NCBI GenBank assembly: GCA_963746765.1
Contig: CAVVCN010000002.1
Coordinates: forward strand, 139,362-203,361
DNA: 64,000 bases
Direction: 5' to 3'
From: an uncultured Actinomycetes bacterium
GTDB lineage: Bacteria > Actinomycetota > Thermoleophilia > Gaiellales > Gaiellaceae
Below, one piece after another: positions 38,099-63,255 of this stretch. Under the pieces are notes generated by a model that worked only from the letters and a program-made list of their open reading frames with translations, had not been told where the DNA came from and ran no database searches. How positions within the stretch are numbered: position 1 is the first letter of the stretch; each line of letters begins with the position of its first letter. A program made the position numbers and the translations under genes.

Positions 38099-38341
38099 AT
38101 GGACGAGGCGAAGAGCAGAACCGGTCTGCGCGCCGCGCTCGGCTTACTCGTGGTCGTCGTCGCCGTGGCGACCTTCTGGGTCACGTCGGCTTTCGCTGCC
38201 GACAACTCGGCGGCGAACGACCGGGGCCCGAGCTCGAGCCCGGCGGCCGCGTACGTGCAGAACGACGGGAACGACGACGCGGCCCCCGATCGCAACTGCC
38301 CGGAGCGCGACGGCGACTCCGAGCAGAGCTCCGACGTGTGA
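38099..38341 (+). CDS. small secreted, highly acidic protein
   Basis: Strong RBS GAAGGAGGTGAAG 6 nt upstream. Signal peptide ...LLVVVVAVATFWVTSAFA/ADNS. The roughly 45-aa mature part is rich in D/N/S with one Cys. High GC3. Confidence 0.6.
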   Translation: MDEAKSRTGLRAALGLLVVVVAVATFWVTSAFAADNSAANDRGPSSSPAAAYVQNDGNDDAAPDRNCPERDGDSEQSSDV

Positions 38342-40142: not shown

Positions 40143-40483
40143 ACGCGGCCACCCTCGAGCGGGAGGCCGGCGTCTCGCCAGTCCTGTTTCCCGCCCGAGT
40201 AGTGCAGCACGTTCCGGTACCCGAGCTCGACGAGCCGATCGCCGACCTCGCCGGAGCTCTCGCACGAGTGGTTCGCGCAGTAGACGACGACCTCCGTGTC
40301 GAGGTCGGGAATCCGCCTGGAAGCGAGATCGTCCACGCGGTCGGGCGGGATGTTGACCGCGCCCGGAAGGTGTGCGCCGGCGTAGGCCAGGGGCGGGAGC
40401 GCGTCCACGAGCACGAACGCCTCGCCGCGCTCGATCTTCTCCCGAAGGGCGTCGCGGTCGATCTCGACGAGCGCCGTCGTCAC
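40139..40483 (-). CDS. rhodanese-like domain protein
   Basis: 114 aa. VLVDALPPLAYAGAHLPGAVNIP...VVVYCANHSCESS...LGYRNVLHYSGGKQDW is a single rhodanese-domain pattern. Confidence 0.8.
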   Translation of the reverse strand: MTTALVEIDRDALREKIERGEAFVLVDALPPLAYAGAHLPGAVNIPPDRVDDLASRRIPDLDTEVVVYCANHSCESSGEVGDRLVELGYRNVLHYSGGKQDWRDAGLPLEGGRV

Positions 40484-40496
40484 GGCGGAAGTGTGC

Positions 40497-40985
40497 CTAC
40501 TGCGACGTGCCGAGCCCGACCGTGAACTCGCGCTCGCGTCCGCGCCAGCTCACGTGCAGCGACTCCGCGACCTTGCGCAGGAGCGAGACCGCCGCCGGGT
40601 TGTCGCCGCACACCGTGGCGACGAGCTCCGTGAACCCGGCCGCGCGGGCGTCGGCCGCCAGCTCGCCCGCAAGCGTCGAGCCGATCCCACGGCGCTGGTG
40701 CACGTCGGCGACCTCGAACGCGATCTCCGCGGCGGGACCGATCCTCACGAGCCGGGCCATGCCCGCGGGCTCGGGGTCTCCGGCCACGTACCCGACGAGG
40801 ACGTGGTGGTCGCCGTCGACGCGCGCGAGTGCCACCAGCTCCGGGTCGGAGAGCGACGGCTTCGCACCGCAGAAGCGCTGCTCCCGCGAGCGCTGACCGA
40901 GCCGCGCGAAGAGCGCGCCGACGGTCGCGACGTCGCCGTCCCGGAGCGTCCGGATGGTGACCCCGTTGACGTAGCGCGCCTGCAT
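40497..40985 (-). CDS. GNAT family N-acetyltransferase, Pat-type (protein lysine acetyltransferase-like) domain
   Basis: ATG 40985. SREQRF...LSDPELVALARVDGDHHVLVGYV...AEIAFEVADVHQRRGIGSTLAGELAADARAAGFTELVATV resembles the GNAT domain of Pat/PatZ-type enzymes. Confidence 0.7.
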   Translation of the reverse strand: MQARYVNGVTIRTLRDGDVATVGALFARLGQRSREQRFCGAKPSLSDPELVALARVDGDHHVLVGYVAGDPEPAGMARLVRIGPAAEIAFEVADVHQRRGIGSTLAGELAADARAAGFTELVATVCGDNPAAVSLLRKVAESLHVSWRGREREFTVGLGTSQ

Positions 40986-41040
40986 GGGTCGATGGTGCGC
41001 CCGGCGCGCAACGTGCGCTTCGCCACTGCGGGCCATCTTC

Positions 41041-41069
41041 TTGACATGGCCCGATCGGGCCACCACACT
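41041..41069 (+). promoter_or_regulatory. candidate promoter (TTGACA-N17-CACACT) with a perfect 14-bp palindrome in the spacer; would give a leaderless mRNA
   Basis: TTGACA 41041-41046; GGCCCGATCGGGCC 41048-41061 is a perfect palindrome; CACACT 41064-41069. The GTG/ATG start codons at 41075/41078 fall where the transcription start would be. Confidence 0.35.
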
Positions 41070-41074
41070 CACGG

Positions 41075-42106
41075 GTGATGTCGCAGACCGAGCAGGAGAT
41101 CCGCTTCTGCGAGCTCGACGGCCGTCGCATCGCCTACGCGACCGTCGGTGAAGGGCCACTGCTGCTCTTCGGTGGCCGCTGGGTCACACATCTCGAGGAG
41201 GAGTGGGCGGAGCCCGCGCCCCGGCGCTTCTTCGAGGAGCTCTCCCGGACGCATCGCGTCGTTCGGTACGACCGGCTCGGCACGGGGCTCTCGGACCGCA
41301 ACCTGCTCGACCCGCTGACGGCGGAGGCCGAGACCCGGATGCTGGCCGCCGTGCACGAGTCGGTCGGGGCCGACCCGGCGATCCTCTTCGCGTGCTCGTG
41401 CGCGGGGCTTGCGAGCACGCGCTACGCGGTCGAGTCCCCGGACCGGGTTCGGAAGATCGTCTACTACGGCGCCTACGCCGCGCGCGACGACATCCCGGAG
41501 GCGACCCGCCGCTCGCTCGTGGACTTCGTGCGCGTCAACTGGCAACTCGCGACGCAGATGCTCGCCGGGCTCTTCATGCCGCACGGAAGCGGCGACGAGA
41601 TCGCGGCGTTCAGCCGCTATCAACGCCACTCCGCGAACGCGGACGTCGCCGCCGCCTTCATGGAGCTCGACCTCGGCTCGGACGTGCGCGAGTTCCTGCC
41701 TCGGGTCACGATGCCCGCGCTCGTGCTCCACCGCCGCGGCGACTGCACGGTGCCGATCGGCCGCGGTCGCGAGCTCGCGGCGTTGCTCCCGAACGCGCGC
41801 TTCGTCGCGCTGAACGGAGACGCGCACCTGCCGTGGCTCGAGGACCAGCGCGAGGTCCAGCGGGCGCTCGCCGGCTTCCTCGAGGACGCCCCGGCGCTCG
41901 ACCCGAACGCCGACTCGCCGCTCTCGCGCCGCGAGACCGAGGTTCTCCGGCTCGTCGCGGCCGGGCTCTCCAATCGCGAGATCGCGTCCTCGCTCGTCCT
42001 GAGCGAGCACACGGTGCACCGGCACGTCGCGAACATCCTGCAGAAGCTCACCCAGTCCTCGCGGGCGGCCGCTGCGGCGCACGCGACGCGCGTCGGCCTG
42101 ATCTAG
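41075..42106 (+). CDS. LuxR family transcriptional regulator with N-terminal alpha/beta-hydrolase-fold domain
   Basis: C-terminal LSRRETEVLRLVAAGLSNREIASSLVLSEHTVHRHVANILQKL. The N-terminal roughly 270 aa has hydrolase topology with an AxSxA elbow (FACSCAG) and late D/H (NGDAHLPW). Confidence 0.8.
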   Translation: MMSQTEQEIRFCELDGRRIAYATVGEGPLLLFGGRWVTHLEEEWAEPAPRRFFEELSRTHRVVRYDRLGTGLSDRNLLDPLTAEAETRMLAAVHESVGADPAILFACSCAGLASTRYAVESPDRVRKIVYYGAYAARDDIPEATRRSLVDFVRVNWQLATQMLAGLFMPHGSGDEIAAFSRYQRHSANADVAAAFMELDLGSDVREFLPRVTMPALVLHRRGDCTVPIGRGRELAALLPNARFVALNGDAHLPWLEDQREVQRALAGFLEDAPALDPNADSPLSRRETEVLRLVAAGLSNREIASSLVLSEHTVHRHVANILQKLTQSSRAAAAAHATRVGLI

Positions 42107-50737: not shown

Positions 50738-50764
50738 GACGGAGGACCTCCACGCTGTGTGACA
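50738..50764 (-). promoter_or_regulatory. ECF41-type promoter (TGTCACA-N16-CGTC) driving the epimerase gene
   Basis: The minus strand reads TGTCACA-cagcgtggaggtcctc-CGTC, an exact motif with exact 16-nt spacing. The -10 element ends 26 nt upstream of ATG 50711. Confidence 0.6.
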
Positions 50765-50777
50765 CCTGGTGCGACGC

Positions 50778-50804
50778 CGTCACAGCTCGGGCTGCTATCC
50801 CGTC
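50778..50804 (+). promoter_or_regulatory. second, near-consensus ECF41-type promoter (CGTCACA-N16-CGTC) upstream of the sigma gene
   Basis: The plus strand reads CGTCACA-gctcgggctgctatcc-CGTC. There is one mismatch in the -35 element and exact 16-nt spacing. It ends 8 nt before ATG 50813. Confidence 0.45.
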
Positions 50805-50812
50805 TACCAGGC

Positions 50813-51670
50813 ATGGAGACGCAGGAGGAGCTGCGGCCGTATCTGTTCGCGATCGCCTACCGCATGCTCGGTTCGGTCGCGGATGCCGAGGACGTCGTGC
50901 AGGAGGCGTTCCTCCGGTATCACGCGGCCGACGTCGAGCCGGACTCGCCGAAGGCGTACCTCGCGACGATCACCACCCGCCTCGCCATCGACCACCTGCG
51001 CTCGGCGCGGATGCAGCGCGAGGTCTATCCCGGAGAGTGGCTGCCGGAGCCGCTCGCCGAGGAGGACGCGGCCCGGCATGCGGAGATGGCGGATTCCCTG
51101 TCGCTCGCGTTTCTCCACCTGCTCGAGAAGCTGTCACCCGTCGAGCGCGCGGTCTTCCTCCTGCGCGAGGTCTTCGACTACCCGTACGACGAGGTCGCCC
51201 GCATCGTCGGCAAGTCGGAGGCGAACAGCCGGCAGATCCTCTCGCGCGCACATGTGCACATCGACGATGGGAGGCGGCGCTTCGACGTGTCGCGGGAGGA
51301 GCGCGAGGAGGTCGCGCGACGGTTCATGGACGCATGGGAGACGGGCGACACGGAGGCTCTGGTCGCGGTGCTCGCGCCCGACGCGACGCTGTACGGGGAC
51401 GGCGGCGGGAAGGCTCCTTCGATCCGCGAGCCGCTCGTCGGTGCCCTCCGTGTCGCGAAAGCGCTCATCGGCTGGCGGCCGAAGCTGCTCGCCCAGGGCG
51501 TGACGCACCGAGTTGTCGACGTCAACGGCGAGCCCGGATTCGTCTACTACTGGCCGGACGGCCGCGTTGCCGGAGTCCAGGAGCTCGAGATCGCCGACGG
51601 CGTCGTCGTCGCGGTTCGGGCGATCGCCAACCCCGACAAGCTCTCGCACCTCGCGACGCTGGGTCTCTAG
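50813..51670 (+). CDS. ECF sigma factor, group ECF41 (SigJ-like) with fused C-terminal SnoaL-like regulatory domain
   Basis: Region 2 YLFAIAYRMLGSVADAEDVVQEAF; region 4 LSPVERAVFLLREVFDYPYDEVARIVGKSEANSRQILSRA. The C-terminal extension carries the group-typical DGGGK and NPDKL motifs. Confidence 0.85.
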   Translation: METQEELRPYLFAIAYRMLGSVADAEDVVQEAFLRYHAADVEPDSPKAYLATITTRLAIDHLRSARMQREVYPGEWLPEPLAEEDAARHAEMADSLSLAFLHLLEKLSPVERAVFLLREVFDYPYDEVARIVGKSEANSRQILSRAHVHIDDGRRRFDVSREEREEVARRFMDAWETGDTEALVAVLAPDATLYGDGGGKAPSIREPLVGALRVAKALIGWRPKLLAQGVTHRVVDVNGEPGFVYYWPDGRVAGVQELEIADGVVVAVRAIANPDKLSHLATLGL

Positions 51671-52056
51671 CGCTCGGCGTGCAGCAAGTCGCCCTGCTCG
51701 CCGAGCACGAGGTCGCGCTCGGGATTCGGGACGTGATCCTTCAGCACGGGCGCCAGTGCCTCGACGAACGTCATCCCGCCCTCGGTCGAGAGCTCGTGCT
51801 CGATGCCGCGGTTCACGACCACGACGTCGCCCGGCCCGAGCGTCTTCGTCTCGTCTCCGACGGTCATCGTCACGTCGCCCTCGACGATCCACATCACCTG
51901 CTCCGCGGTCGGGTGCGAGTGTCGCGCGACGGTCGTGCCCGGCTCGTACGTGACGTGGCAGATCATCACCTGCTCGCCGCCGATGGCATGGATCGCCACG
52001 CCCGGGAAGAGGGCGTGGCGATCGACGCCGTTCCACGTCCTGAAGGGGGAGCTCAG
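51667..52056 (-). CDS. cupin domain protein
   Basis: VARHSHPTAEQVMWIVEGDV...GPGDVVVVNRGIEHE. The start is uncertain: CTG 52056 overlapping the upstream stop, or GTG 52002. Confidence 0.65.
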   Translation of the reverse strand: MSSPFRTWNGVDRHALFPGVAIHAIGGEQVMICHVTYEPGTTVARHSHPTAEQVMWIVEGDVTMTVGDETKTLGPGDVVVVNRGIEHELSTEGGMTFVEALAPVLKDHVPNPERDLVLGEQGDLLHAER

Positions 52057-53150
52057 GCGGGAACCTCGAAGCGCATGCCGCCGTCCGAGACCGTGTTCAC
52101 CGACAGCTCCTCGTCGAACACGACGAGCTTGCCCTCGCGGCGTGGCTCCTTCTTCGCCTCGAGGGCCCGCAGGACGCGCTCGGGCGTGATCGGGAGCTCC
52201 GTGACCCAGACGCCGACGGCGTCGTAGACCGCGGCCGCGATCGCGGGCGGCTGCGGGTTGTTCGCCATCTCGCCGATGCCCTTCGCTCCGTAGGGGCCGT
52301 CCGCCGACGGGTTCTCGATGAGGATCGTGTCGATCTGCGGCATGTCCTCCATGCCGGGCGCGAGGTAGCTCCCGAACGACCCGCCGCGGTGCTCCACGTC
52401 CGGGTAGTACGGGTAGCAGTTCTCGAGCACGCCGAGCCCGAGGCCCATCATGGCGCCGCCCTCGATCTGGCCCTCGACGAGCGTCGGGTTGAGCGCACGG
52501 CCGACGTCGTAGCACTGCTGGAGCCGGAGGACGCGCACCTGCCCCGTCTCGTCGTCCACCTCGACCTCGGCCGCACAGGTCGCGTACGAGATCGCCGAGT
52601 GGGGTGGGAGGTCGACCTGCCCCGTCTCGGCGTCGATGATGGCGGCGTACGGCTTGAGCTGTGCGCCGGTGCCCGTAATCAGCTCTCCGTGGTTGAACGT
52701 GGCGGCTCCGGCCACGTCCGCGACCGACAGCTTCGTCTGCGGCGAGCCCTTCGCGATCACCTCGCCCTCCACGATCTCGAGGTCGGCGGGGTCGATCTCG
52801 AGCTCCTTGCCCGCGATCTCGAGCAGCTTCTGCTTCACCTGCAGCGCGGCCTTCTCGGCTGCCTTGCCGGCGACGAACGTCGCCCGGGACGCGAACGTGC
52901 CGGTGCACATCGGGGACGAGTCCGTGTTCGAGTTGTCGTACGTGATCCAGTCGTAGGGGACGCCGATCGTCTCGGCCACGATCTGGGACTGGATCGTCTT
53001 CGACCCGTTCCCGATGTCCGAGGTACCGGCGAAGACGTCGATGCGACCGTCGGGCTTGACCTTGATCCATGCCTGCGACGGGTCGCCGTTCTGGTTCATG
53101 CCCGTCGGGTACTCGATCGCCGCGATCCCGCGGCCCTTGTGCCTGGCCAT
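52053..53150 (-). CDS. xanthine dehydrogenase family molybdopterin-binding subunit, C-terminal half of a split large subunit
   Basis: ATG 53150 lies in TGATG with the upstream stop, with GGAGGA 6 nt upstream. GRGIAAIEYPTG, DIGNGSKT, AAEVEVDDETGQV, GQIEGGAMMGLG, GPYGAKGIGE. Confidence 0.85.
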   Translation of the reverse strand: MARHKGRGIAAIEYPTGMNQNGDPSQAWIKVKPDGRIDVFAGTSDIGNGSKTIQSQIVAETIGVPYDWITYDNSNTDSSPMCTGTFASRATFVAGKAAEKAALQVKQKLLEIAGKELEIDPADLEIVEGEVIAKGSPQTKLSVADVAGAATFNHGELITGTGAQLKPYAAIIDAETGQVDLPPHSAISYATCAAEVEVDDETGQVRVLRLQQCYDVGRALNPTLVEGQIEGGAMMGLGLGVLENCYPYYPDVEHRGGSFGSYLAPGMEDMPQIDTILIENPSADGPYGAKGIGEMANNPQPPAIAAAVYDAVGVWVTELPITPERVLRALEAKKEPRREGKLVVFDEELSVNTVSDGGMRFEVPA

Positions 53151-54520
53151 CAGTGGTCCTCCGGGTTCCCGAGCTGGGCGACGAGGTGCTCCGGCAGCCA
53201 CTCGCCCGACCGCGGATCGCTCGTCATTGCCCTGTACTCGTCGGGCAGGTCGTGGTCGATCGCGTCGGCGATCGCCTGGATCGTGGGGACGCTCGAGGGA
53301 TCGGTGTAGACGACGCCGTTCGGCGAGGTGTCGCCGACCCTGTTGGCGTTCTTGAGCCGGATCTCGAGCGGGTCGAGCCCGAGCTCGTTCGCGATGCGGC
53401 TCAGGTGCGTCTCCGTCGCGAACGAGACCGACGTGACGCCGAACCCGCGCATCGCCGTAGTCGGCACGCGGTTCGTGAAGACGACGTATCCGTCGAACTC
53501 GAGGTTGGGGATCGTGTACGCGCCCGTGTGGTGGAAGCTGTGCTTCGTCAGGCCGTAGGGCGAGAAGCGCGCGTACGCCCCGGCGTCATGGAGGGTGAGC
53601 ATCTTGCGGCCGAGGATCCAGCCGTCCTTCGTCACCGCGTCCGCGATCTCCATGTGCCACGGCGCCCGCGTCGAGGAGCAGAGGAACTCCTCCTCGCGCG
53701 TCCAGCGCCACTTGACGGGCCGGCCGGACTTGAGCGCGAGCAGCGAGCACATCGTCTCGGTCGCCGTGTCCACCTTGCCGCCGAAGCCGCCGCCCGTCGT
53801 CCCACCGACGAACTTCAGCTTGTTGAGCGGCACCTGGAGGTGCGCGGCGACGACGCCCATCGAGAAGTAGAGCGCCTGGGTGCAGGAGTAGATCGTGAGC
53901 CGGCCGTTCGGCTCGGGAACGACCTGGCACACCTGCGTCTCGAGCGGCGCGTGCTCGATCGCGGCCGGACGGTAGACGCCCTGCACGATCGCGTCCGCAT
54001 TCTCGAAGGCCCAGGCGATGTCGCCCTTCCGGATCTGACGCCGGTCCATCTCGTCCTCGAAGTGCGGGTACCAGTTGCCCCAGTGGTGGATCTTCGGGGC
54101 GTCCGCGTCGAACGCCTTGCGGACATCGGTGAACGCCTCCCGCTCGTCGAACTCGATGGCGATGCGCGAGACCGCTTCCGCCGCCGTCTGCTCGTCGTCC
54201 GCGGCGACGACCGCGATCGGCTGGCCCTTGTAGCGCACCTCGTCGACCGCGAGCAGCGGCTCGTCCGCCGGGATGCCGAGGGCCGAGAGGTGCCCGTACT
54301 CGTTTAGGGGGACGTCCGCGTGCGTGACGACCGCGTGCACGCCCGGGAGCTCTTCGGCCGGCTTCGTGTCGAGCTTCAGGATGCGCGCCGAGTGGTGCGG
54401 CGAGCGCAGCGCCTTCACCCACAGCGTCCCGGGGATGCGCACGTCGTCGACGTAGGTCGTCCGGCCGGTGACGTGGGCGACCCCGTCGTAGCGCGGGATG
54501 CGTGCGCCGACGACCTTCAT
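53150..54520 (-). CDS. xanthine dehydrogenase family molybdopterin-binding subunit, N-terminal half of a split large subunit
   Basis: ATG 54520 overlaps the FeS subunit stop (ATGA). VTGRTTYVDD (a/b hammerhead), GGGFGGK, RVPTTAMRGFGVTSVSFATE; 456 aa. Confidence 0.85.
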   Translation of the reverse strand: MKVVGARIPRYDGVAHVTGRTTYVDDVRIPGTLWVKALRSPHHSARILKLDTKPAEELPGVHAVVTHADVPLNEYGHLSALGIPADEPLLAVDEVRYKGQPIAVVAADDEQTAAEAVSRIAIEFDEREAFTDVRKAFDADAPKIHHWGNWYPHFEDEMDRRQIRKGDIAWAFENADAIVQGVYRPAAIEHAPLETQVCQVVPEPNGRLTIYSCTQALYFSMGVVAAHLQVPLNKLKFVGGTTGGGFGGKVDTATETMCSLLALKSGRPVKWRWTREEEFLCSSTRAPWHMEIADAVTKDGWILGRKMLTLHDAGAYARFSPYGLTKHSFHHTGAYTIPNLEFDGYVVFTNRVPTTAMRGFGVTSVSFATETHLSRIANELGLDPLEIRLKNANRVGDTSPNGVVYTDPSSVPTIQAIADAIDHDLPDEYRAMTSDPRSGEWLPEHLVAQLGNPEDH

Positions 54521-55029
54521 GCCGCACCTCCTGTCGTCATGGTCGTGTACTTCCCGACTGCGGTCTCCGTGAGGTCGAAGGAGTCGCCGCGCGCCGCGGC
54601 GGCCACCGCCTCGACGATCTTCGAGTAGCCGGTGCAGCGGCAGACGTGGCCGGCGAGTGCCTCCTGGATCGCCTCGGCGTCGTCGCTTCCGCCGCGGGTG
54701 ATGTAGCTGTGCCCCGCCAGCATCATCCCCGAGGTGCAGAAGCCGCACTGCGCGGCGTAGTAGTGGACGAACGCCTGCTGGACGGGGGAGAGGCTCTCCG
54801 GTGGGCCGAGCCCCTCGACGGTCGTGATCTCGCCCTCGGCGTACGCGAGCGGCAGCAGGCACGACCGGCGCGGCTCGCCGTCGACGAGCACGGTGCAGGC
54901 GCCGCAGCCGCCCTGGTGGCAGCCGGCCTTCGGCCCGGTGATCCCGAGCTCCTCGCGGAGGACGTCGAGCAGCGGCGTCGTCGGCGCGCTCTCGATCTCG
55001 TGCGTGACACCGTTGACCGTGAGGTTCAT
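54517..55029 (-). CDS. (2Fe-2S)-binding small subunit of the xanthine dehydrogenase family enzyme
   Basis: ATG 55029 overlaps the FAD subunit stop (ATGA). CHQGGCGACTV, CGFCTSGMM and CRCTGY cluster ligands. Confidence 0.9.
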   Translation of the reverse strand: MNLTVNGVTHEIESAPTTPLLDVLREELGITGPKAGCHQGGCGACTVLVDGEPRRSCLLPLAYAEGEITTVEGLGPPESLSPVQQAFVHYYAAQCGFCTSGMMLAGHSYITRGGSDDAEAIQEALAGHVCRCTGYSKIVEAVAAAARGDSFDLTETAVGKYTTMTTGGAA

Positions 55030-55814
55030 GCACCCTCCTCGAGGTCGGCGAGGACGCGTCGGACGAGCACCGGGAGCACCTTCGCGCGATACCACGCGGA
55101 GGCCAGTGCGTCGTCGTGGGGAGTGACGTCGTTCAGAGCGGAGTCCGCATCGCCCGCTTCGGCGGACGCGAGGCGAACCCCGTGCGGGCCGGTGCCGGTG
55201 GCGGCGAGGCGGATCGTTCCGTCCGCGGAGCGCGCCCCGGACACGGCGAGCGTCGTGTAGTCGTGGGTGTGCGGGCGGTCGAGACCGGCGAACGCTCCGG
55301 CCGCGGGCTCCTCGTACGAGACGTCGAGGACCAGCCGGCCCGCGCGATTCGGGAGGAAGTCCTCGAGCGGCTGTTCCGTGACGCCGCCGGCGCCCGCCGA
55401 GCGCACCGTCGCGCCCACCGCGATGAGCGCGCCCTGGAGGTCGCCGCGAGGCGCCTCGAAGCCGTCGGGTGCGCAGAGGTTCCCGCCGAGGGTCGCCGCG
55501 GCGCGGATCTCGAGGTCGGCGACGTTCGCCGCGCACGGGCCGATCGGAGCCGGAAGCTCCACGAGCTCGGCGACCGGTGTGGTGGCGCCGATCGTCACAC
55601 GCGAGCCGCTCCGCGAGATCCCCGTCAGGCCGGCGTCCTTCAGGAACAGGACGCGCCCGGGCCGCAGGCGTCGGTAGGACATCTCGGGCACGACGATCGT
55701 CCCGCCGCCGATGACGACGACGTCGGTGCCGTCGCCGAACGCCTCCAGGGCTTCCTCCTCGGAGGCAGGGCGGAGGGTCTCGGTTTCGGTCACGTCCAGG
55801 CTGGCTGTGGCCAT
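55026..55814 (-). CDS. FAD-binding (CoxM/XdhB-like) medium subunit of the xanthine dehydrogenase family enzyme
   Basis: RBS GAGGAGAGGGAG. VVIGGGTIVV, AATLGGNL; 262 aa. Confidence 0.85.
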   Translation of the reverse strand: MATASLDVTETETLRPASEEEALEAFGDGTDVVVIGGGTIVVPEMSYRRLRPGRVLFLKDAGLTGISRSGSRVTIGATTPVAELVELPAPIGPCAANVADLEIRAAATLGGNLCAPDGFEAPRGDLQGALIAVGATVRSAGAGGVTEQPLEDFLPNRAGRLVLDVSYEEPAAGAFAGLDRPHTHDYTTLAVSGARSADGTIRLAATGTGPHGVRLASAEAGDADSALNDVTPHDDALASAWYRAKVLPVLVRRVLADLEEGA

Positions 55815-56060
55815 AGGGCTCCCTCTCCTCGAGCGTTCTCGCTGGCAGTGGATCTTTGGGCGAGTCTAATCGTGTCCGCACGGCCCGCGGAAACGATCGA
55901 TTCTCGATCAGCACGCAACGCAGGCCCGTGAGTGCGACCGAGTTATCCACAGCTCCGCCCCGCACGGGTGCAGGCCGGCGAACACGGCTCTGCACGGACG
56001 TCTGGCGCCGGTCGACGTCGGATCGTCCACAGGCGGACCCCCGGCGTCGCTAGGGCCCCG

Positions 56061-56957
56061 GTGTACGCTGCGACGGTGACTTTTCGGACGATCGACGAGC
56101 TCGAGGCGGGCCTCCGCGGGGCGGACTACCTGCCCGATCGCGGGCTCGCGACCGCGCTCTTCCTCTCGCAGGCGCTCGAGAAGCCGCTGCTCCTCGAAGG
56201 CGAGGCAGGCGTCGGGAAGACGGAGGCCGCGAAGGCGCTCGCGCAGGCACTCGGCGCGCGGCTGATCAGGCTCCAGTGCTACGAGGGGCTCGACGTCACG
56301 CACGCGGTCTACGAGTGGAACTACCCGCGCCAGCTCCTTCACATCCGCGCGGCGCAGGAGGGAACCGTGTCCGAGGACGAGCTCTTCGGCCCCGAGTTCC
56401 TCATCCGCCGGCCGCTCCTCGAGGCGATCGATACCGACGAGCAGGCGGTGCTCCTGATCGACGAGGTCGATCGCGCGGACGAGGAGTTCGAGGCGTTCCT
56501 GCTCGAGGTGCTCTCGGACTTCCAGATCACGATCCCGGAGCTCGGCACGATCTCGGCCAGGCGGCGACCGGCCGTCATCCTCACGTCGAACCGGACGCGC
56601 GAGCTCCACGACGCGCTCAAGCGGCGTGCGCTCTTCCACTGGATCGGGCACCCGTCGCTCGACCGCGAGGTCGAGATCGTTCGGCTCCGCGTGCCGGGGA
56701 TCCCCGAGCGGCTCGCCGCAGAGGCGGCGGCGTTCGTCCGCGGGCTCCGCGGGCTCGACCTCGCCAAGCCGCCGGGCGTCGCCGAGACCATCGACTGGGC
56801 GCAGGCGCTCGCCGCGCTCGGGCGCGAGGAGATCGACGCCGAGGTCGTCGAGCAGACGCTCGGCTCCGTGCTCAAGTACCGCGAGGACATCGAGGCGGTG
56901 CGCGACGAGACGCTCGTCGGCCTCATCGAAGAGGCCCGCACGACAGCCGGCCGGTAG
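56061..56957 (+). CDS. MoxR-family AAA+ ATPase, CoxD-like
   Basis: Walker A GEAGVGKTEAA, Walker B LLIDEVDRA, sensor region ILTSNRT. The start is GTG 56061 or GTG 56076. Confidence 0.85.
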   Translation: MYAATVTFRTIDELEAGLRGADYLPDRGLATALFLSQALEKPLLLEGEAGVGKTEAAKALAQALGARLIRLQCYEGLDVTHAVYEWNYPRQLLHIRAAQEGTVSEDELFGPEFLIRRPLLEAIDTDEQAVLLIDEVDRADEEFEAFLLEVLSDFQITIPELGTISARRRPAVILTSNRTRELHDALKRRALFHWIGHPSLDREVEIVRLRVPGIPERLAAEAAAFVRGLRGLDLAKPPGVAETIDWAQALAALGREEIDAEVVEQTLGSVLKYREDIEAVRDETLVGLIEEARTTAGR

Positions 56958-56960
56958 GCC

Positions 56961-58094
56961 GTGCCCGGCTCGGCGATCGTCCGCCACGTCGTCACGTTCG
57001 GCCGCGTCCTGCGGGAGGTCGGGATCGAGGTCGGCCCCGGTCGCGTCGCCGATGCCGTGCGCGGGCTCGGCACGGTCGATCTCACGCGCCAGGAGGACGT
57101 CTACTTCACGCTGCGGCAGACGCTCGTCTCGCGGCACGACGAGCTCGAGCTGTTCGACCGCGCGTTCGTCGCGTGGTTCCTGCGGGGCCCCATCGCACCG
57201 CTCGTGCGCGAGCGACAGCGCCGCCAGCACGTGGAGAAGGTCACCGGCGGCTCGCTCGCCCCCACGGACGACCGCGACGATCCCGGAGCGGACGGCTCGC
57301 CGCTCGAGCTCGGCGCGTCGGCGCACGAGCTTCTGCGCGAGAAGGACTTCGCCGAGATGACGGCCGAGGAGTTCGAGCGAGCGCGGCGGCTGCTGGCGAA
57401 GCTCGCACGCACGCGGCCACACCGCACGTCACGCCGCCGGACGGCGGACCCGCGGGGCGACAGCCTCGACATGCGCCGGCTCATCCGGCGCTCGCTCCGC
57501 TGTGGCGGCGACCCGGTCGAGCAGACGTGGAAGGCGCGCAAGACCGTTCCCCGCAAGCTCGTCGTGCTCTGCGACGTGTCGGGCTCGATGGACGCCTACG
57601 CGCGCGCGCTCCTCCTTTTCCTACATGCGCTCGTCGGGACCGGGCACGGGGTGGAGGCGTTCGGCTTCGGCACCCGCCTGACCCGCGTCACACCGGATCT
57701 CGCGACCCGAGATCCGGAGGCGGCCCTCGCGAAAGCGACCTCGCTCGCCGTCGACTGGGGGAGCGGGACACGCATCGGCGCTTCGCTCAAGGAGTTCAAC
57801 GACGTGTACGGGCGGCGGGCGCTGTCCCGGGGCGCCGTCGTCGTCGTCGTCTCGGACGGGTGGGAGCGCGAGGACTCCGAGCTCGTCGGCCGCGAGATGG
57901 CGCGGCTCTCGAGAGCGTCGTACGCGGTCGTGTGGGTGAATCCGCTGAAGGGGGATCCGGAGTACCAGCCGCTCGCTGGCGGCATGCGGGCGGCGCTTCC
58001 CTTCGTCGACCGCTTCCTGCCGGGACACAACATCGCGAGCCTCGAAGAGCTCGCCGGCGTGCTCGAGGGCATCGACCGGCGACACGCCGCCTGA
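56961..58094 (+). CDS. VWA domain protein, CoxE-like
   Basis: GTG start 4 nt after the MoxR stop. MIDAS LCDVSGSM...GTR...SDG. The N-terminal region is typical of CoxE-type proteins. Confidence 0.85.
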   Translation: MPGSAIVRHVVTFGRVLREVGIEVGPGRVADAVRGLGTVDLTRQEDVYFTLRQTLVSRHDELELFDRAFVAWFLRGPIAPLVRERQRRQHVEKVTGGSLAPTDDRDDPGADGSPLELGASAHELLREKDFAEMTAEEFERARRLLAKLARTRPHRTSRRRTADPRGDSLDMRRLIRRSLRCGGDPVEQTWKARKTVPRKLVVLCDVSGSMDAYARALLLFLHALVGTGHGVEAFGFGTRLTRVTPDLATRDPEAALAKATSLAVDWGSGTRIGASLKEFNDVYGRRALSRGAVVVVVSDGWEREDSELVGREMARLSRASYAVVWVNPLKGDPEYQPLAGGMRAALPFVDRFLPGHNIASLEELAGVLEGIDRRHAA

Positions 58095-58112: not shown

Positions 58113-60962
58113 CTACGCCGGGCCCGGCGCGTCGCCGGCAGCTTCATCGGCGGCGATGCTGTACGCGCTCAGCCGGCTCGAGAGGTCCTTGATGAAGTCC
58201 ACGTCCGGGTTCTCCATTCCCGGCTCGGGGGCGGACCGCTGCACGCCTGCCTGGGCGACCGCCGGCTCCGCGTGCTCCTTCTCCTTGCGGCGGCGGCGCC
58301 CGCGGCGCTTCGCCTCGCCGTTGGCGGGTGCGGGCGGCGCCGGAGCGGGCTTGCGCTTGCGCGCGACCTCGGGCTCCTTCGGCGGCTCCGGGTCAGGCTG
58401 CGGCGGAGCGGGCGGCTGCGGCGGAGGAGGCGTCGGCGCCGGTGGCGGCGGAGCGGGCGCGGGAGTCGGATCCGGGGCGGGAGGCGGTGCCGGCTCGGGC
58501 TCCGGGACGCGAGCGCGCGTCGGCACGGTCGGCTTCTTCGCAACCGGCTTCGGTGGAGCCTTCGACGCTGGCTTCGGCTTCGTGGGCGGTGGCTTCTGGG
58601 CGACCGGCGCAGGTGGTGGGGCCGCCGCGGGCCGGGGAGCAGGCTTGGCCGGCGCGGGCGGCGCAGCCTTCGGCACGGGCGGCGCCTTGGCGACGACCGG
58701 CTCGGGCACCGGCGGGGGTGGTGGCGGAGGCTTCGCGGCGGGCGCGGGCGGCGCAGTCGCCGTCACCGGCGGCTGCGGATCGCGGATCGGCCGCGTGCGC
58801 GGCTTCGGCTTCGGCTCGGCAGCGGCGGCAGGCATGGGCGCCGGCGCCGGGGTGCTCTCCGCCTTGACCTCGGCCTCGAGGTCGGCCTCGGCCGCAGGCG
58901 CACGACGCGACTCCGGCTCGGGTCCGGAGTCCGGCTCGGGCTTTGCTCCTCGCGCCTCCTGCAGGATCGGGACCGTGCGCGGCTCGGGCCGCGGCTCCGG
59001 CTTCGGCTCGGGCTCGATCGGGACCTCGGGGAGCGGCTGCGCGTTCAGGAACGAGACGACGTGCTCCGGCAGCGGCTCCGGGACGAGCTCCGGAACGACG
59101 ATGTAGTCCGGCAGCTCCTCGTCGTCGGGCTCGACGTCGAGGGCCGACCCCGCGTCCAGGTCGAGCGAGGCGGCGTAGGTCTCGGACGGATGCACGACGA
59201 AGTCGGGCAGTGGCTCTTCGTCCTCGACCGCGACGGCGGTCGGGCGGGGCGGCTCGGGCGGCGCCTCGAACGTCGTCACCGGCGCCGGGGTGCCGGGGAG
59301 CCGCGGCGCCTTCGACCAGGCGCCCTCGGTGGCGACGGCCGTGCGCTCGCGCAGCTCGTGGCGGAGGATCGTGCCGTTCGCCGCGGTCGGGAGCTCGTCC
59401 ACGAACTCGACCTCGCGCGGGACCATGTCCTCGGGCAGCGTGTGCCGCAGGTGCTGGCGGATCTCGGCGACGAGCCGATCGGAGGCCTCCGCCCCGGGCG
59501 CGAGCACGACGAACGCGCGGACGTACTGGCCGCCGCGCTGGAGGTCGCGCATGCCGACGACGCCGGCGTTCGCAACGGCCCGGTGCTCGACGAGTGCCTG
59601 CTCCACTTCGAAGGGCCCGAACCGGCGCCCGCCGCTCGTGATGACGTCCGCCGCGCGGCCGAGGAGGCGGACGGAGCCGTCCTCCTCGCGGCACGCGAGG
59701 TCGCCGGTCAGATAGAGGTCGCCGCGGAACACGGCCTTCGTCTCCTCGGGTGCGTCCCAGTACCCGGCGAAGAGCGTCGGCGGACGCCCGCGCAGCGCGA
59801 GCTGGCCCTCGCCTCCGGGCCCGATCTCGGCGCCACTCTCGTCGACGATCGCGATGTCATGTCCGGGAAGCGGTTGCCCGATCGAGCCGCTTTCCAACCC
59901 GTCGTCGGCGCCGTGCCCGATCACGAGCCCGGTCTCCGTCTGGCCCCAGCCGTCCTCGATGGGCATGCCCCACGCCTGCTCGAAGGTCGAGACGACGTCG
60001 GAGCTCAGGAAGTCGCCGGTCGACACCATGCGGCGCAGGCGGTCCGGCAGGTAGCGGCCGAGTGTCCGCTCGCCGGCATCGGTGAGCGCGCGGTACTCGG
60101 AGGGGCTCTGGCAGAGGATCGTGACCTCGAAGCGCCGGATGAGATCCAGCCGCTCCTCGGGGTCGAAGGCGCCCTCGTGGAGCACGACCTCGGCGCCCCG
60201 CGCCCAGGGGCCGAGGAGAAGGAGCCACACGGCGAGCGGCGATGCCGTGTCCGCCGTGCACCAGACGACGTCGCCGCGCCGCGCGTCGAGCCAGTGCTCG
60301 GCCTGCGCGCGGGCCGCGAACGCCGCGGCGTGCGTGTGCTCGACGCCATAGGGCGCGCCGCCGCCCGACGTCGTGAGCAGGAAGGCAAGGTCGCGCGAGG
60401 CGGTGTCGTGCGTCGGCTCCTCACCGGACATGCGCTGCAGGCGGTCGTGCACCTCGGCGGCGTCGAGGACGGCCGCACCGGCGACGGTCTCGAGCGAGGC
60501 GACAGCCGGGACGTGGTCGGCGACCACGAGCTTCGCGCCGGCGCCCGCGACGCGGATCTCGAGGGCGGCGCGCGAGATGGTGGGCGAGCACGGCACGGTC
60601 ACCGCGCCGACCTTCATCCCGGCGAGCATCACCTCGATCCAGCTCGGCGACTTGCCGATGACGACCACGACCCGGTCGCCGGGGCGCACGCCCTGCTCGC
60701 GGAGCCGGGCGGCCCAGGCGCCGGCACCCTCGGCGAGTCGGGTGAACGTCCACGGCTCGATCACGCCGTCCGCACCGAGGAACATCAGCGCACGGCGGCG
60801 CGTGTCGTCCGCGAGAGCCTCGACGACGTCTCGCGTGAAGTTGAAGCGGTCCGGAACACGCCAGCGACCGTCCACCCATGCGGGCTGGAGTGCAGCCTCC
60901 AGCGGCCCCAGGGGCGCCTGGGTAGCGGCTCGGCTGCGCCGGCCGAAGGACACAAGCTTCAC
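58113..60962 (-). CDS. divergent adenylate-forming (ANL/AMP-binding) enzyme with a roughly 430-aa proline-rich C-terminal extension
   Basis: GTG start. The first roughly 520 aa form a full two-domain ANL fold paralogous to 38478..40142. The remainder is Pro/Ala/Glu/Lys low complexity (PAPAPPPPAPTPPPPQPPAPP), a basic patch KRRGRRRRKEKEH and a short non-repetitive tail. GC3 supports this frame; the antisense Gly-rich ORFs are shadows. Confidence 0.8.
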   Translation of the reverse strand: MKLVSFGRRSRAATQAPLGPLEAALQPAWVDGRWRVPDRFNFTRDVVEALADDTRRRALMFLGADGVIEPWTFTRLAEGAGAWAARLREQGVRPGDRVVVVIGKSPSWIEVMLAGMKVGAVTVPCSPTISRAALEIRVAGAGAKLVVADHVPAVASLETVAGAAVLDAAEVHDRLQRMSGEEPTHDTASRDLAFLLTTSGGGAPYGVEHTHAAAFAARAQAEHWLDARRGDVVWCTADTASPLAVWLLLLGPWARGAEVVLHEGAFDPEERLDLIRRFEVTILCQSPSEYRALTDAGERTLGRYLPDRLRRMVSTGDFLSSDVVSTFEQAWGMPIEDGWGQTETGLVIGHGADDGLESGSIGQPLPGHDIAIVDESGAEIGPGGEGQLALRGRPPTLFAGYWDAPEETKAVFRGDLYLTGDLACREEDGSVRLLGRAADVITSGGRRFGPFEVEQALVEHRAVANAGVVGMRDLQRGGQYVRAFVVLAPGAEASDRLVAEIRQHLRHTLPEDMVPREVEFVDELPTAANGTILRHELRERTAVATEGAWSKAPRLPGTPAPVTTFEAPPEPPRPTAVAVEDEEPLPDFVVHPSETYAASLDLDAGSALDVEPDDEELPDYIVVPELVPEPLPEHVVSFLNAQPLPEVPIEPEPKPEPRPEPRTVPILQEARGAKPEPDSGPEPESRRAPAAEADLEAEVKAESTPAPAPMPAAAAEPKPKPRTRPIRDPQPPVTATAPPAPAAKPPPPPPPVPEPVVAKAPPVPKAAPPAPAKPAPRPAAAPPPAPVAQKPPPTKPKPASKAPPKPVAKKPTVPTRARVPEPEPAPPPAPDPTPAPAPPPPAPTPPPPQPPAPPQPDPEPPKEPEVARKRKPAPAPPAPANGEAKRRGRRRRKEKEHAEPAVAQAGVQRSAPEPGMENPDVDFIKDLSSRLSAYSIAADEAAGDAPGPA

Positions 60963-61046
60963 GGCTCGACTCTTATCGACCGAATCGCCGCCGAAACTGA
61001 GGTTTTCGACCCCAATTCGGGCGAGTCCCCGCCCGGCCTCCCGCAG

Positions 61047-62009
61047 CTAGACGAGCCCCATCTCGACCGCGAACGGCGTGCCTACGGGAAGCTGCTCGGG
61101 AAGCCGAAAGCCACCGGCCTCCTCGAGGGCTGCGATACGTGCCTTGATCGGGGGGTGTGTGTTGAACCAGCTCGAGAACTCCTGGATCCCGCCGCGGGTC
61201 GAGTCGATGCGGTCGGTCGGGCTCTCGACCCAGAGGTGCGCGGTCGAGGCGTCGGCCTGGCGGACCGTCGTCGGATCGAGCTCGAGCCGGCGGAGCGCGA
61301 GCGCCATGCCCTCCGCATCGCTCGTGATCTCGGCCGCGCCCGCGTCGGCGAGGAACTCCCGCCTGCGCGAGAGGCTCAGGCGGAGGAGCAGCGCTGCGTA
61401 CGGCGCGAGCACGAGCCCGACGATCGCGAGGATGCGTCCGAACATGCCGCCCCGGCCGTCGCCGCGGCCACCGCCGTAGGCGAGCGTGCGGAAGCCGAGG
61501 TCTGCGATCAGCGCGATGACGCCCGCGAAGATCGTCGCCATGGTCATGAGATACGTGTCGCGATGGCGGATGTGCGCGACCTCGTGCGCGATGACGGCCT
61601 CGAGCTCGCGCTGCGGCATCGTCCGCAGCAGCCCGGTGGTGACGCCCACGTAGCTCGACGTAGGCCGCAGGCCCGCTGCGAACGCGTTCGGCGCCGGATC
61701 GTCGACGACGCGGACCTCGGGTGTCACCGGCAGGCCCGCGCCGATGGACGCGTTCTCGACCAGACGGCGGAGCGGGCGAAGCTCGTTCGGAGAGAGCTCC
61801 TGCGCGTGGGTCAACCGCGAGATGAGGGACTTCGACTGCCAGAGCGCGAACGCGCCGTACGCGACGGCGAACACGAGCGCGAAGATCGCGAGCGAGATGT
61901 CGAAGAAGAGGCCGATGAGCGCGCCGATCGCGGCGAGGAGCGCGACGAAGCCGGCGATGACGATGAGGCTCCGGAACCGGTTCGAGCGGATCTGCTGCTG
62001 AAGCGTCAC
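61047..62009 (-). CDS. htpX: M48 family zinc metalloprotease HtpX
   Basis: HEVAH zinc motif, four hydrophobic segments, NTHPPIKARI C-terminal motif. Confidence 0.9.
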   Translation of the reverse strand: MTLQQQIRSNRFRSLIVIAGFVALLAAIGALIGLFFDISLAIFALVFAVAYGAFALWQSKSLISRLTHAQELSPNELRPLRRLVENASIGAGLPVTPEVRVVDDPAPNAFAAGLRPTSSYVGVTTGLLRTMPQRELEAVIAHEVAHIRHRDTYLMTMATIFAGVIALIADLGFRTLAYGGGRGDGRGGMFGRILAIVGLVLAPYAALLLRLSLSRRREFLADAGAAEITSDAEGMALALRRLELDPTTVRQADASTAHLWVESPTDRIDSTRGGIQEFSSWFNTHPPIKARIAALEEAGGFRLPEQLPVGTPFAVEMGLV

Positions 62010-62016
62010 GCGCGCC

Positions 62017-62571
62017 TCACCGGGCGAACGAGACGTCGGGCACGGCCGTATCGCCCTGCGCGGAGAAGAACTCGCGCTCGCGGAATCGGAACAACCCGGC
62101 GAGCAGCAGCCACGGGAAGCTCTGCACGGCGGTGTTGAAGTGCATGACCGTCGAGTTGTAGTAGCGGCGCGCGGCGCTGATCTTGTCCTCGGTGTCCGTC
62201 AGGTCCTCCTGGAGGCGGAGGAAGTTCTCGGACGCCTTGAGCTCGGGATACGCCTCGGCGACCGCGAAAAGCCTGCCGAGAGCGGCGGTCAGGATGTCGT
62301 TCGCCTCGGCCGCGATCCCCGGCGAGCCCGCCTGCTGCACCGCCGCGCGCGCTCGAGTCACCTCCTCGAAGACTCCGCGCTCGTGCGCCGCGTAGCCCTT
62401 CACCGCTTCGACGAGATTCGGGATCAGGTCGGTGCGACGCTGGAGCTGCACCTCGATGTTCGCCCAGCCCGTGTCGACCTCGTTCCGCAGCCGGACGAGC
62501 CGGTTGTACCCGAGCACGGCGACGACGAGCAGCAAGGCGAGGACGCCGAGGAGGATCCAGAGCCAGAGCAC
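62017..62571 (-). CDS. lemA: LemA family protein
   Basis: N-terminal TM helix, then YNRLVRLRNEVDTGWANIEVQLQRRTDLIPNLVE...AEAYPELKA...RRYYN. Confidence 0.9.
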   Translation of the reverse strand: MLWLWILLGVLALLLVVAVLGYNRLVRLRNEVDTGWANIEVQLQRRTDLIPNLVEAVKGYAAHERGVFEEVTRARAAVQQAGSPGIAAEANDILTAALGRLFAVAEAYPELKASENFLRLQEDLTDTEDKISAARRYYNSTVMHFNTAVQSFPWLLLAGLFRFREREFFSAQGDTAVPDVSFAR

Positions 62572-62583
62572 CGCGCGCTGAAC

Positions 62584-63255
62584 CTACTTCACGTCGAGCG
62601 CGGCTGCGAGCGCCGAGCGACCGTCGGCCAGCACGGGGTCGCCGTGCGACACGAGCACACGCTCGACGGGAAGGTCGAGCAGCGGTCGGAGCGACTCTGC
62701 GAGCTTCGCGTGGTCGACCTTCTCGGGGAGCCAGGACGCGGGGCACATGCGGATGCCGCCCTCGCCGTCCCCGACGAGCACGTCACCGGGGACGAGGGTC
62801 TTGTGCGCGGGCAGCCAGTAGACGACCTCGGCCGCACGCGCGGTGCGAAGCGCCTGGATGCCGCCGGGCAGGGCGTCATCCGGGCGAAAAGCGTCGGTGA
62901 CGGTGCCGGCGCGCCGCTCGATCGCCGTGCGCCCGCGAGCCGGCGCCCACACACGGGCGCGGTAGCGGTCGACCAGCTCGCGCGTATGCCGCGTGTGCCA
63001 GAAGACGGTGACGAGCACGTGCACGTTCCCGCCGGCGCGCTCGACGTCGCGGTCGAGGGACCGCCAGAACTGATCCCCGTCGTCCGGTGGCACGAGCGGG
63101 TCGACCAGCACGGCCCCGTCCGACGTCTCGACGTAGACCGAGCCGACGTCCTCCTGCCACTCGTCGTGCCATCCCGTCCAGCGCCAGAGACCGGGCGAGA
63201 CCTCCGCGACGTCCACGCGAGCACTGTAGTGCGAACCGCTCCCGTGCCAGCTCAC
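62584..63255 (-). CDS. MBL-fold metallo-hydrolase-like protein
   Basis: GTG start; VLVDPL...VLVTVFWHTRHTRE...VSHGDP topology. The histidine motif is non-canonical. Confidence 0.6.
   Translation of the reverse strand: MSWHGSGSHYSARVDVAEVSPGLWRWTGWHDEWQEDVGSVYVETSDGAVLVDPLVPPDDGDQFWRSLDRDVERAGGNVHVLVTVFWHTRHTRELVDRYRARVWAPARGRTAIERRAGTVTDAFRPDDALPGGIQALRTARAAEVVYWLPAHKTLVPGDVLVGDGEGGIRMCPASWLPEKVDHAKLAESLRPLLDLPVERVLVSHGDPVLADGRSALAAALDVK

Follow-up and report, generated by a model that had tools for sequence, protein, structure and literature searches.

The 64,000-nucleotide stretch of contig CAVVCN010000002.1 analysed here (the window), from an uncultured actinobacterium of the Gaiellaceae, encodes on its reverse strand a protein of 949 amino acids (aa) in which an adenylate-forming body of the ANL superfamily is followed by a proline-rich tail of about 400 residues. 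In this ANL-tail protein the P-loop lysine and the A10 lysine are both replaced, the tail carries short motifs that recur throughout a family of homologues, the gene stands last in a conserved order with LemA and HtpX, and body and tail are under purifying selection. On these observations we favour, tentatively and at a little short of an even chance, a reading in which the window protein is an adenylation-impaired family member that has kept its ligand pocket, whose tail would serve as a tether with docking motifs, and for which LemA and HtpX would be the first candidate partners.

The open reading frame (ORF) has an identical counterpart in public assemblies (protein P0001). The window has a GC content of 71%, and third-position GC in this frame stayed between 0.76 and 1.00 from end to end, tail included, as expected of a translated frame in this genome. 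Pfam matched AMP-binding (PF00501) at aa 56-402 (E = 4e-60) and AMP-binding_C (PF13193) at aa 452-530 (E = 1e-19, ending at profile position 75 of 76), the large N-terminal and small C-terminal domains of the ANL fold; the remaining ~400 aa gave no Pfam match. From an alignment of 32 sequences, AlphaFold2 predicted for the full-length protein a confidently folded body (aa ~30-543), with a predicted local distance difference test (pLDDT) score above 70 in most 10-residue blocks of aa 40-520. The tail was predicted to lack secondary structure, with pLDDT mostly below 50, so that the extended Pro/Ala/Glu/Lys region noted in a preliminary description of this DNA appears as a disordered segment. 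A family-specific extension of ~30 aa (K.L.(I/F)GRR......PLE.AL.PA) precedes the standard MACS N-terminus and is common to all family members and to both paralogues of the window, the second of which we call the twin. We rejected this N-terminus as a Tat or Sec signal, because it has no hydrophobic core (the most hydrophobic 15-aa stretch averages only 0.65 on the Kyte-Doolittle scale) and because the segment also occurs in the twin, where the ANL domain is predicted to be cytoplasmic. Hydropathy analysis found neither a signal peptide nor a membrane anchor in the ANL-tail protein, which is probably cytoplasmic.

In ANL enzymes that have been characterised, adenylate formation is stabilised by the P-loop and A10 lysines, which contact the phosphates of ATP. 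Our lysine calls are based on residue-by-residue alignment with 5u2a, 9g79 and ACSM2A, in which Tyr205 fell on the P-loop lysine (..sgtaglPKg..) and Thr531, in the local sequence PTAANGTILR, on the A10 lysine (..psGKi.r..). No lysine or arginine was present within three residues on either side of Tyr205 or Thr531. As there were neither gaps nor neighbouring basic residues, the substitutions are not a gap-shift artefact; the preliminary description had named such a shift as what would overturn its reading of these two residues, and that reading withstood the comparison. Measured against competent ANL members, the window protein thus lacks the lysine of the P-loop consensus [ST][ST]G[ST][ST]GxPKG and that of the A10 consensus PxxxxGK, and it has the A5 (Y/W)GxTE, A7 (Y)xTGD and A8 GRxxD..G.R motifs in the form of WGQTETG, YLTGD and GRAADVITSGGRRFG. 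In having key catalytic residues replaced, the protein resembles a pseudoenzyme. With both lysines replaced, the first half-reaction, acyl-adenylate formation, would most likely be lost or very slow; the ANL body may still bind a ligand, be it nucleotide, acyl-adenylate or CoA.

A homologue search with the ANL region returned 699 proteins at E < 1e-30. About 100 of the best 120 exceeded 780 aa and so carried the tail, whose absence from all homologues would have counted against the preliminary description; the shorter homologues that we read (P0004, P0006-P0008, P0019, P0060 and P0074) came from frameshifted or cut assemblies. The named sources and 78 species-level genome loci were all metagenome-assembled genomes (MAGs) of Gaiellaceae, Gaiellales or Thermoleophilia. 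Across the family the A3 position was occupied by K (56), R (44), Y (9), H (5), L (5) or M (1), and the A10 position by K (84), T (11), R (9), N (6), S (4), M (1) or L (1). When the two positions were tallied as pairs in 153 non-redundant full-length members, K/K was found in 65, R/K in 42, K/R in 14, Y/T in 9 and [L or M]/[N, T or S] in 8, with a few others, so that 70% of the members kept the A10 lysine. Parsimony on a neighbour-joining tree of these members gave at least 11 losses of the A10 lysine, 8 of them to non-basic residues, and loss of both lysines in two independent clades. The Y/T pair is fixed in all nine members of the clade to which the window protein belongs. E343, T419-G420-D421, R436, D439 and G445 were invariant or nearly so in every group, lysine-less clades included.

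Within the Y/T clade the ratio of nonsynonymous to synonymous substitution rates (dN/dS) was 0.15-0.20 for the ANL region and 0.20-0.28 for the motif-bearing part of the tail (aa 544-660); it rose to 0.38-0.60 in the poorly aligned Pro-rich spacer, and was 0.23 for the C-terminal motif in comparison with locus L006. The nucleotide/acyl pocket and the tail are therefore under purifying selection in the window lineage, and for the ANL region this selection persisted after the lysines were lost, as it does in pseudoenzymes. To judge from these ratios, the window protein is functional and constrained.

The same data could be read as those of a working acyl-CoA synthetase or acyl-AMP ligase in which other residues or a bound partner make up for the missing lysines, or in which only the thioester half-reaction is needed and the tail merely localises the protein. 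The lysine-less clades show no variation in the A5 glutamate, A7 aspartate, A8 arginine, hinge aspartate or Gly-rich loops, and selection on the ANL region is strong. Retention of the A10 lysine in most of the family makes it probable that the ancestral function was enzymatic, and the members that keep it together with a lysine or arginine at the P-loop are, by their motifs, probably working synthetases. It is also known that A10 lysine mutants of ANL enzymes lose mainly adenylation and can retain thioester formation. However, the joint loss of two phosphate-contacting lysines in two separate clades looks like abandoned chemistry rather than chance tolerance, no compensating basic residue lies near either position, and the twin in the same genome lacks the entire C-domain and so cannot supply an A10 lysine. 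We consider persistent catalysis by the window protein unlikely, yet a serious alternative. The preliminary description had called this protein a pseudo-enzyme; the replaced lysines and the constraint on the Y/T clade fit that label, whereas the other nucleotide-binding motifs are intact, and we use the term for a putative assignment.

The tail measures 403-411 aa depending on the choice of cut and consists of 29% Pro, 17% Ala and 10% Glu. It contains EEPLPDFVVHP and EELPDYIVVPE, two copies of the motif LPD[YF][IV]V, and the basic patch, as originally reported, and a degenerate third copy that is kept in the closest relatives (Table 1). Of 94 tails extracted from homologues, 90 matched the pattern [LIVM]P[DE][YFW][LIVM][LIVM], in one to three copies each. 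In 81 of the 94 extracted tails we also found a C-terminal peptide, EPG[DM]E..[WF][MI].[GD]LS.RLSAYS[LI], of which the P, G, S, R, L, A and Y columns were invariant among 32 diverse members. An end of ~35 aa, earlier described as unique, does exist in the window protein, but across the family no part of the tail proved better conserved. Other shared elements are GRPLWE directly after the ANL body and, often, GLPPVT[DE]F followed by a basic stretch. We propose that the tail would form a long, flexible tether and dock a partner through its motifs, much as the FtsZ linker and C-terminal peptide do, with LemA and HtpX as the first candidates. The earlier suggestion of a scaffold is consistent with conserved short motifs in a segment predicted to be disordered, although any partner is putative.

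Tails of the family range from 245 to 436 aa and from -90 to +5 in net charge (median -59). Within the window tail an acidic stretch rich in Glu and Pro (aa ~570-690) precedes one rich in Pro, Ala and Lys (aa ~740-880), and tails close to neutral (-16 to +5) were seen in the window clade and in the sister lineages P0009 and P0010, owing to this ~150-aa insert. In the window clade the LPDY-type motifs adjoin the ANL body and do not lie near the C-terminus. A coupling of tail charge to lysine loss was rejected, since P0009 and P0010 retain their lysines and have near-neutral tails, and since tails in the other lysine-less clade have stayed acidic. The tail is not a tandem-repeat expansion either, as only short, weak repeats were detected at the codon level.

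Several functions of the C-terminal motif were considered and set aside. A word-indexed search and an exhaustive search of a motif profile against 1.84 billion representative proteins both matched proteins of many lengths; the profile search matched 84, and all 12 of those inspected belonged to the same family or were fragments of it, which speaks against a targeting signal carried by other proteins. By these matches the motif is confined to the ANL-tail family and is not a general targeting signal. An amphipathic membrane-targeting helix was rejected on the hydrophobic moment (0.27 for the window sequence, 0.11 for the consensus), and the acidic residues that flank the motif likewise count against it. 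Docking of the tail motifs in cis found no support in the AlphaFold2 model of the full protein, where the C-terminal motif had a pLDDT below 50 and neither a helix nor a contact.

Frameshifts inside the Pro-rich tail were seen in many orthologues from MAGs (loci L007, L008 and L009; proteins P0004 and P0006-P0008), with the result that automatic annotation yields many 'hypothetical proteins' of 40-350 aa that are tail fragments. In L007, L008 and L009, tblastn found the C-terminal motif still downstream of the frameshift, and we believe that these are probably assembly errors in runs of Pro and Gly codons, not real truncations. The frameshifts would suit a pseudogene in decay, or a spurious ORF, called because the genome is GC-rich, with an untranslated tail, as would the tendency of high-GC DNA to produce long spurious ORFs. 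An example of the latter lies opposite the ANL-tail and HtpX genes: a 1288-aa frame at 58272-62138 (+), which failed the filter for coding-type GC by codon position and is a shadow ORF usual for such DNA, not a gene. Against decay or artefact stand the intact window ORF with coding-type third-position GC throughout, dN/dS values well below 1, the in-frame C-terminal motif kept at the end of the tail in more than 80 homologues, and the persistence of that motif in the frameshifted copies. An explanation of this kind is very improbable.

The clearest functional clue came from the gene order, which remains an association only. In the window an MBL-fold protein, LemA, the HtpX-type protease and the ANL-tail protein are encoded in this order, with gaps of 12, 7 and 84 bp, and no terminator-like site was seen in the window between HtpX and the ANL-tail gene. 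When the window proteins were compared by tblastn with the species-level loci, 61 had enough upstream sequence to be assessed, and in 59 of these MBL, LemA and HtpX lay directly upstream on the same strand. The ANL proteins of the syntenic loci are just 50-60% identical to the window protein, and their ANL matches began a median of 100 bp after the HtpX match ended. Three metagenome contigs showed the same four-gene order.

The tail might instead dock elsewhere: to the CoxD-like (AAA+) or CoxE-like (VWA) maturation protein, to the twin, through its basic patch to nucleic acid or anionic lipid, or to itself in self-association or condensation. CoxE and CoxD follow the 3' end of the ANL-tail gene immediately and in convergent orientation, in the window and in many relatives; the basic stretch ahead of the C-terminal motif is conserved; and the twin has the same family-specific N-terminal ~30 aa. 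However, adjacency to CoxE is far less constant than that to LemA and HtpX, since in many loci it is missing or several kb away, and the twin occurs in only some lineages. We therefore give such partners a fairly small chance. The Cox genes belong to a molybdenum-hydroxylase cluster of the CO-dehydrogenase or xanthine-dehydrogenase type at 52053-58094, beyond which lies a gene (50759-51670, +) for a sigma-70 family (ECF-like) protein with a C-terminal SnoaL_2/DUF4440-type domain.

Several points weigh against an adenylation-impaired, LemA/HtpX-docking protein. All other ATP/AMP motifs are kept, which would be equally expected of an active enzyme with an unusual mechanism. In most family members the A5 threonine is replaced by alanine, and the canonical A8 arginine is displaced by one position, so that even lysine-retaining members may have an atypical chemistry. 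None of the tail motifs received a confident structure or contact in the AlphaFold2 prediction, and the C-terminal motif is not clearly an amphipathic helix, its moment being no higher than that of shuffled sequences. Two of the 61 loci have no LemA and HtpX upstream, and one of them, L050, nevertheless has a full tail with the motif. Finally, conserved gene order suggests an association with LemA and HtpX and does not prove a functional or physical link. A broader view, which we offer with little confidence, is that the family is caught in transition from enzyme to pseudoenzyme: its members would be tethered through their tails to the LemA/HtpX module of membrane-protein quality control, with adenylation repeatedly abandoned and ligand binding and docking kept. 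The protein could then serve as a metabolite-sensing adaptor or a regulator of HtpX, with the membrane-anchored N-domain twin as a second component.

The twin had been described as a truncated protein colinear with the ANL-tail protein over some 520 aa. The two are indeed homologous and share their N-terminus, but they align, at 56% identity, over 436 aa only, which is the ANL N-domain; Pfam found no AMP-binding_C domain in the twin. About 50 relatives of 530-584 aa were 51-75% identical to the twin over their full length and had the same architecture, in which the N-domain is followed by a variable Pro-rich linker, basic residues, a hydrophobic helix (LTLTLWVLAAGVMIGGVAI, mean Kyte-Doolittle value 2.1) and a highly conserved end of ~25 aa, IPHA.D.PRVVP.SED.PNAICL. 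By the positive-inside rule the ANL domain is predicted to be cytoplasmic. The twin is thus, on its predicted topology, a conserved tail-anchored membrane protein family of its own and no remnant of a truncation. It is present only in some lineages and is absent from the syntenic site in L001.

The neighbourhood of the twin is conserved as well, with a secreted-type ORF of 80 aa upstream and a rhodanese, a Pat-like GNAT and an abhydrolase-LuxR regulator downstream. The 80-aa ORF (38099-38341, +) begins like a signal peptide (..LGLLVVVVAVATFWVTSAFAADN..) and ends in the conserved sequence AAYVQNDG..CP.RD..SEQSSD; it was found upstream of the twin in L004, L066 and L074 but was missing there in L005 and L079. 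Its sequence contains just one Cys, as does the conserved outer peptide of the twin (..PNAICL). The rhodanese and GNAT pair also follows the twin in L004 and L005. In NCBIfam the GNAT was matched best by the GNAT domain of Pat, an acetyltransferase of mycobacteria (E = 2.9e-13, falling far short of the cut-off).

The inverted orientation of the two paralogues, about 18 kb apart, had been noted correctly: their genes are convergent, and a search for relatives with the same arrangement found it in the CAWFIP, CAWBYI and CAVXPS genomes, on a single contig each. It had been proposed that recombination between the paralogues, inverted as they are and homologous over ~1.3 kb, could invert the regulator-rich segment between them. 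The coding sequences are 69% identical over 1270 nt with a longest exact match of 22 nt, far below what efficient RecA-dependent recombination needs, and the annotated neighbours of the two paralogues included no recombinase. An invertible segment would have near-identical inverted repeats or recombinase sites and would be met in both orientations; we found one orientation in four genomes, with spacers of 14-18 kb including the window (~14-17 kb in the other three). CoxE and CoxD abut the ANL-tail gene in all four, and in CAWFIP the rhodanese and GNAT abut the twin as they do in the window. Given the low identity and the constant layout, an inversion switch is hardly credible.

The closest known proteins are medium-chain or short-branched acyl-CoA synthetases, for which we compared Staphylococcus aureus MbcS (NF047394), the acetate--CoA ligase model PRK04319, the acetyl-CoA synthetase 9g79, human ACSM2A (2vze), Methanosarcina acetivorans 3etc and 5u2a. 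The window protein matched the structures among them by phmmer at E values of 2e-74 to 1e-59, and it shares with these synthetases the two-domain AMP-binding fold, the MACS-type N-terminal segment VPxxFNFxxDV, a Gly and not a Trp before the A5 Gln, the A5 Glu, the A7 Asp and the A8 Arg and Asp. It differs from them in its P-loop tyrosine and A10 threonine, in scores far below the NCBIfam equivalog cut-offs for MbcS and PRK04319 (346 against 850 bits and 319 against 729), in the conserved N-terminal ~30 aa, in the motif-bearing tail of ~405 aa and in the fixed LemA/HtpX order. A10 sites of the P-x4-G-K or P-x3-G-K type are acetylated by Pat-type enzymes, and the lysine-retaining family members have one form or the other. 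Acetylation-controlled AMP-forming synthetases are represented by Acs and AcsA with Pat or AcuA (PMC8556138). A Pat-like GNAT adjoins the twin in the window, but the A10 lysine is absent from both paralogues; with no lysine at the site, Pat-type control cannot act on the window protein.

For the tail, the comparison is with the FtsZ C-terminal linker and peptide, the SSB tail and the C-terminal microdomains of RNase E, in which a folded domain is joined through a variable disordered linker to a conserved docking peptide. By analogy, the linker of the ANL-tail family drifts in length and composition and its short motifs and terminal peptide are conserved; unlike in those systems, the folded domain is an ANL homologue and the tail motifs match no known docking peptide. 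TonB-type spacers are proline-rich, with (Glu-Pro)n and (Lys-Pro)n runs, and the succession of an acidic Glu/Pro part and a Pro/Ala/Lys part in the window tail is reminiscent of them, whereas the protein has no signal peptide or membrane anchor and most family tails are purely acidic. No relevant publication emerged from a literature search on LemA or HtpX with acyl-CoA synthetases, on ANL pseudoenzymes and on acyl-CoA synthetases with disordered C-terminal extensions. Taken as a whole, the preliminary description was largely right and needed correction on three points: how far the paralogues are colinear, whether the end is unique, and what the twin is; it had missed the upstream MBL/LemA/HtpX order, the family-wide C-terminal motif and the membrane-anchored architecture of the twin.

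Table 1. Features of the ANL-tail gene, its neighbours and the twin (positions in the window)
Feature	Position	Strand	Remarks
Full ORF, ANL-tail protein	58113..60962	-	949 aa + stop, GTG start
ANL region, aa 1-543	59334..60962	-	Pfam; AlphaFold2
N-terminal extensions	60873-60962 (ANL-tail), 38478-38570 (twin)		conserved ~30 aa
A3 / P-loop TTSGGGAPYG, aa 197-206	60345..60374	-	Tyr205 replaces Lys
A8 / hinge GRAADVITSGGRRFGPFEVE, aa 435-454	59601..59660	-	Arg436 and Asp439 kept
A10 motif PTAANGTILRHEL, aa 525-537	59352..59390	-	Thr531 replaces catalytic Lys
Predicted disordered tail, aa 544-949	58116..59333	-	Pro/Ala/Glu/Lys-rich; AlphaFold2, composition
Tail motif copy 1 EEPLPDFVVHP, aa 582-592	59187..59219	-	pattern match
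Tail motif copy 2 EELPDYIVVPE, aa 615-625	59088..59120	-	pattern match
Degenerate third copy EPLPEHVVSF, aa 629-638	59049..59078	-	sequence reading
Basic patch KRRGRRRRKEKEH, aa 885-897	58272..58310	-	family-wide basic stretch ahead of C-terminal motif
Conserved C-terminal motif PEPGMENPDVDFIKDLSSRLSAYSI, aa 912-936	58155..58229	-	homologue alignment
HtpX-type M48 zinc metalloprotease	61047..62009	-	upstream of ANL-tail gene
LemA family protein	62017..62571	-	upstream of HtpX
MBL-fold protein	62584..63255	-	first of conserved four-gene order
MoCoBD_2	52053-53201	-	
FAD_binding_5	55026-55814	-	
CoxD-like AAA+	55932-56957	+	
CoxE-like VWA	56961-58094	+	end 19 bp from ANL-tail stop codon, convergent
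Twin paralogue, 554 aa	38478..40142	+	ANL N-domain aa 1-436, Pro-rich linker, transmembrane helix, outer peptide
Twin transmembrane helix, aa 510-528	40005-40061		predicted
Twin conserved outer peptide IPHAQDQPRVVPRSEDAPNAICL	40059-40127		
Rhodanese	40139-40483	-	directly after twin
Small GNAT	40497-41159	-	after rhodanese

Few adenylating enzymes are understood as well as the ANL enzymes, whose A10 lysine is regarded as near-invariant; LemA and HtpX are widespread membrane proteins with poorly known partners. The family described here breaks the ANL rule, in that its A10 lysine is unusually labile, it has a long tail, predicted to be disordered, with docking-type motifs, and its gene order is locked with LemA and HtpX. 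It represents a new architectural variant of a well-known superfamily, for which the linkage to LemA and HtpX was unexpected. Its hosts are abundant uncultured soil actinobacteria, and the evidence so far is all sequence-based. If the tail does dock LemA or HtpX, the family would offer a testable handle on the function of these two proteins and a natural case in which an adenylating enzyme has taken on the role of a binding module.

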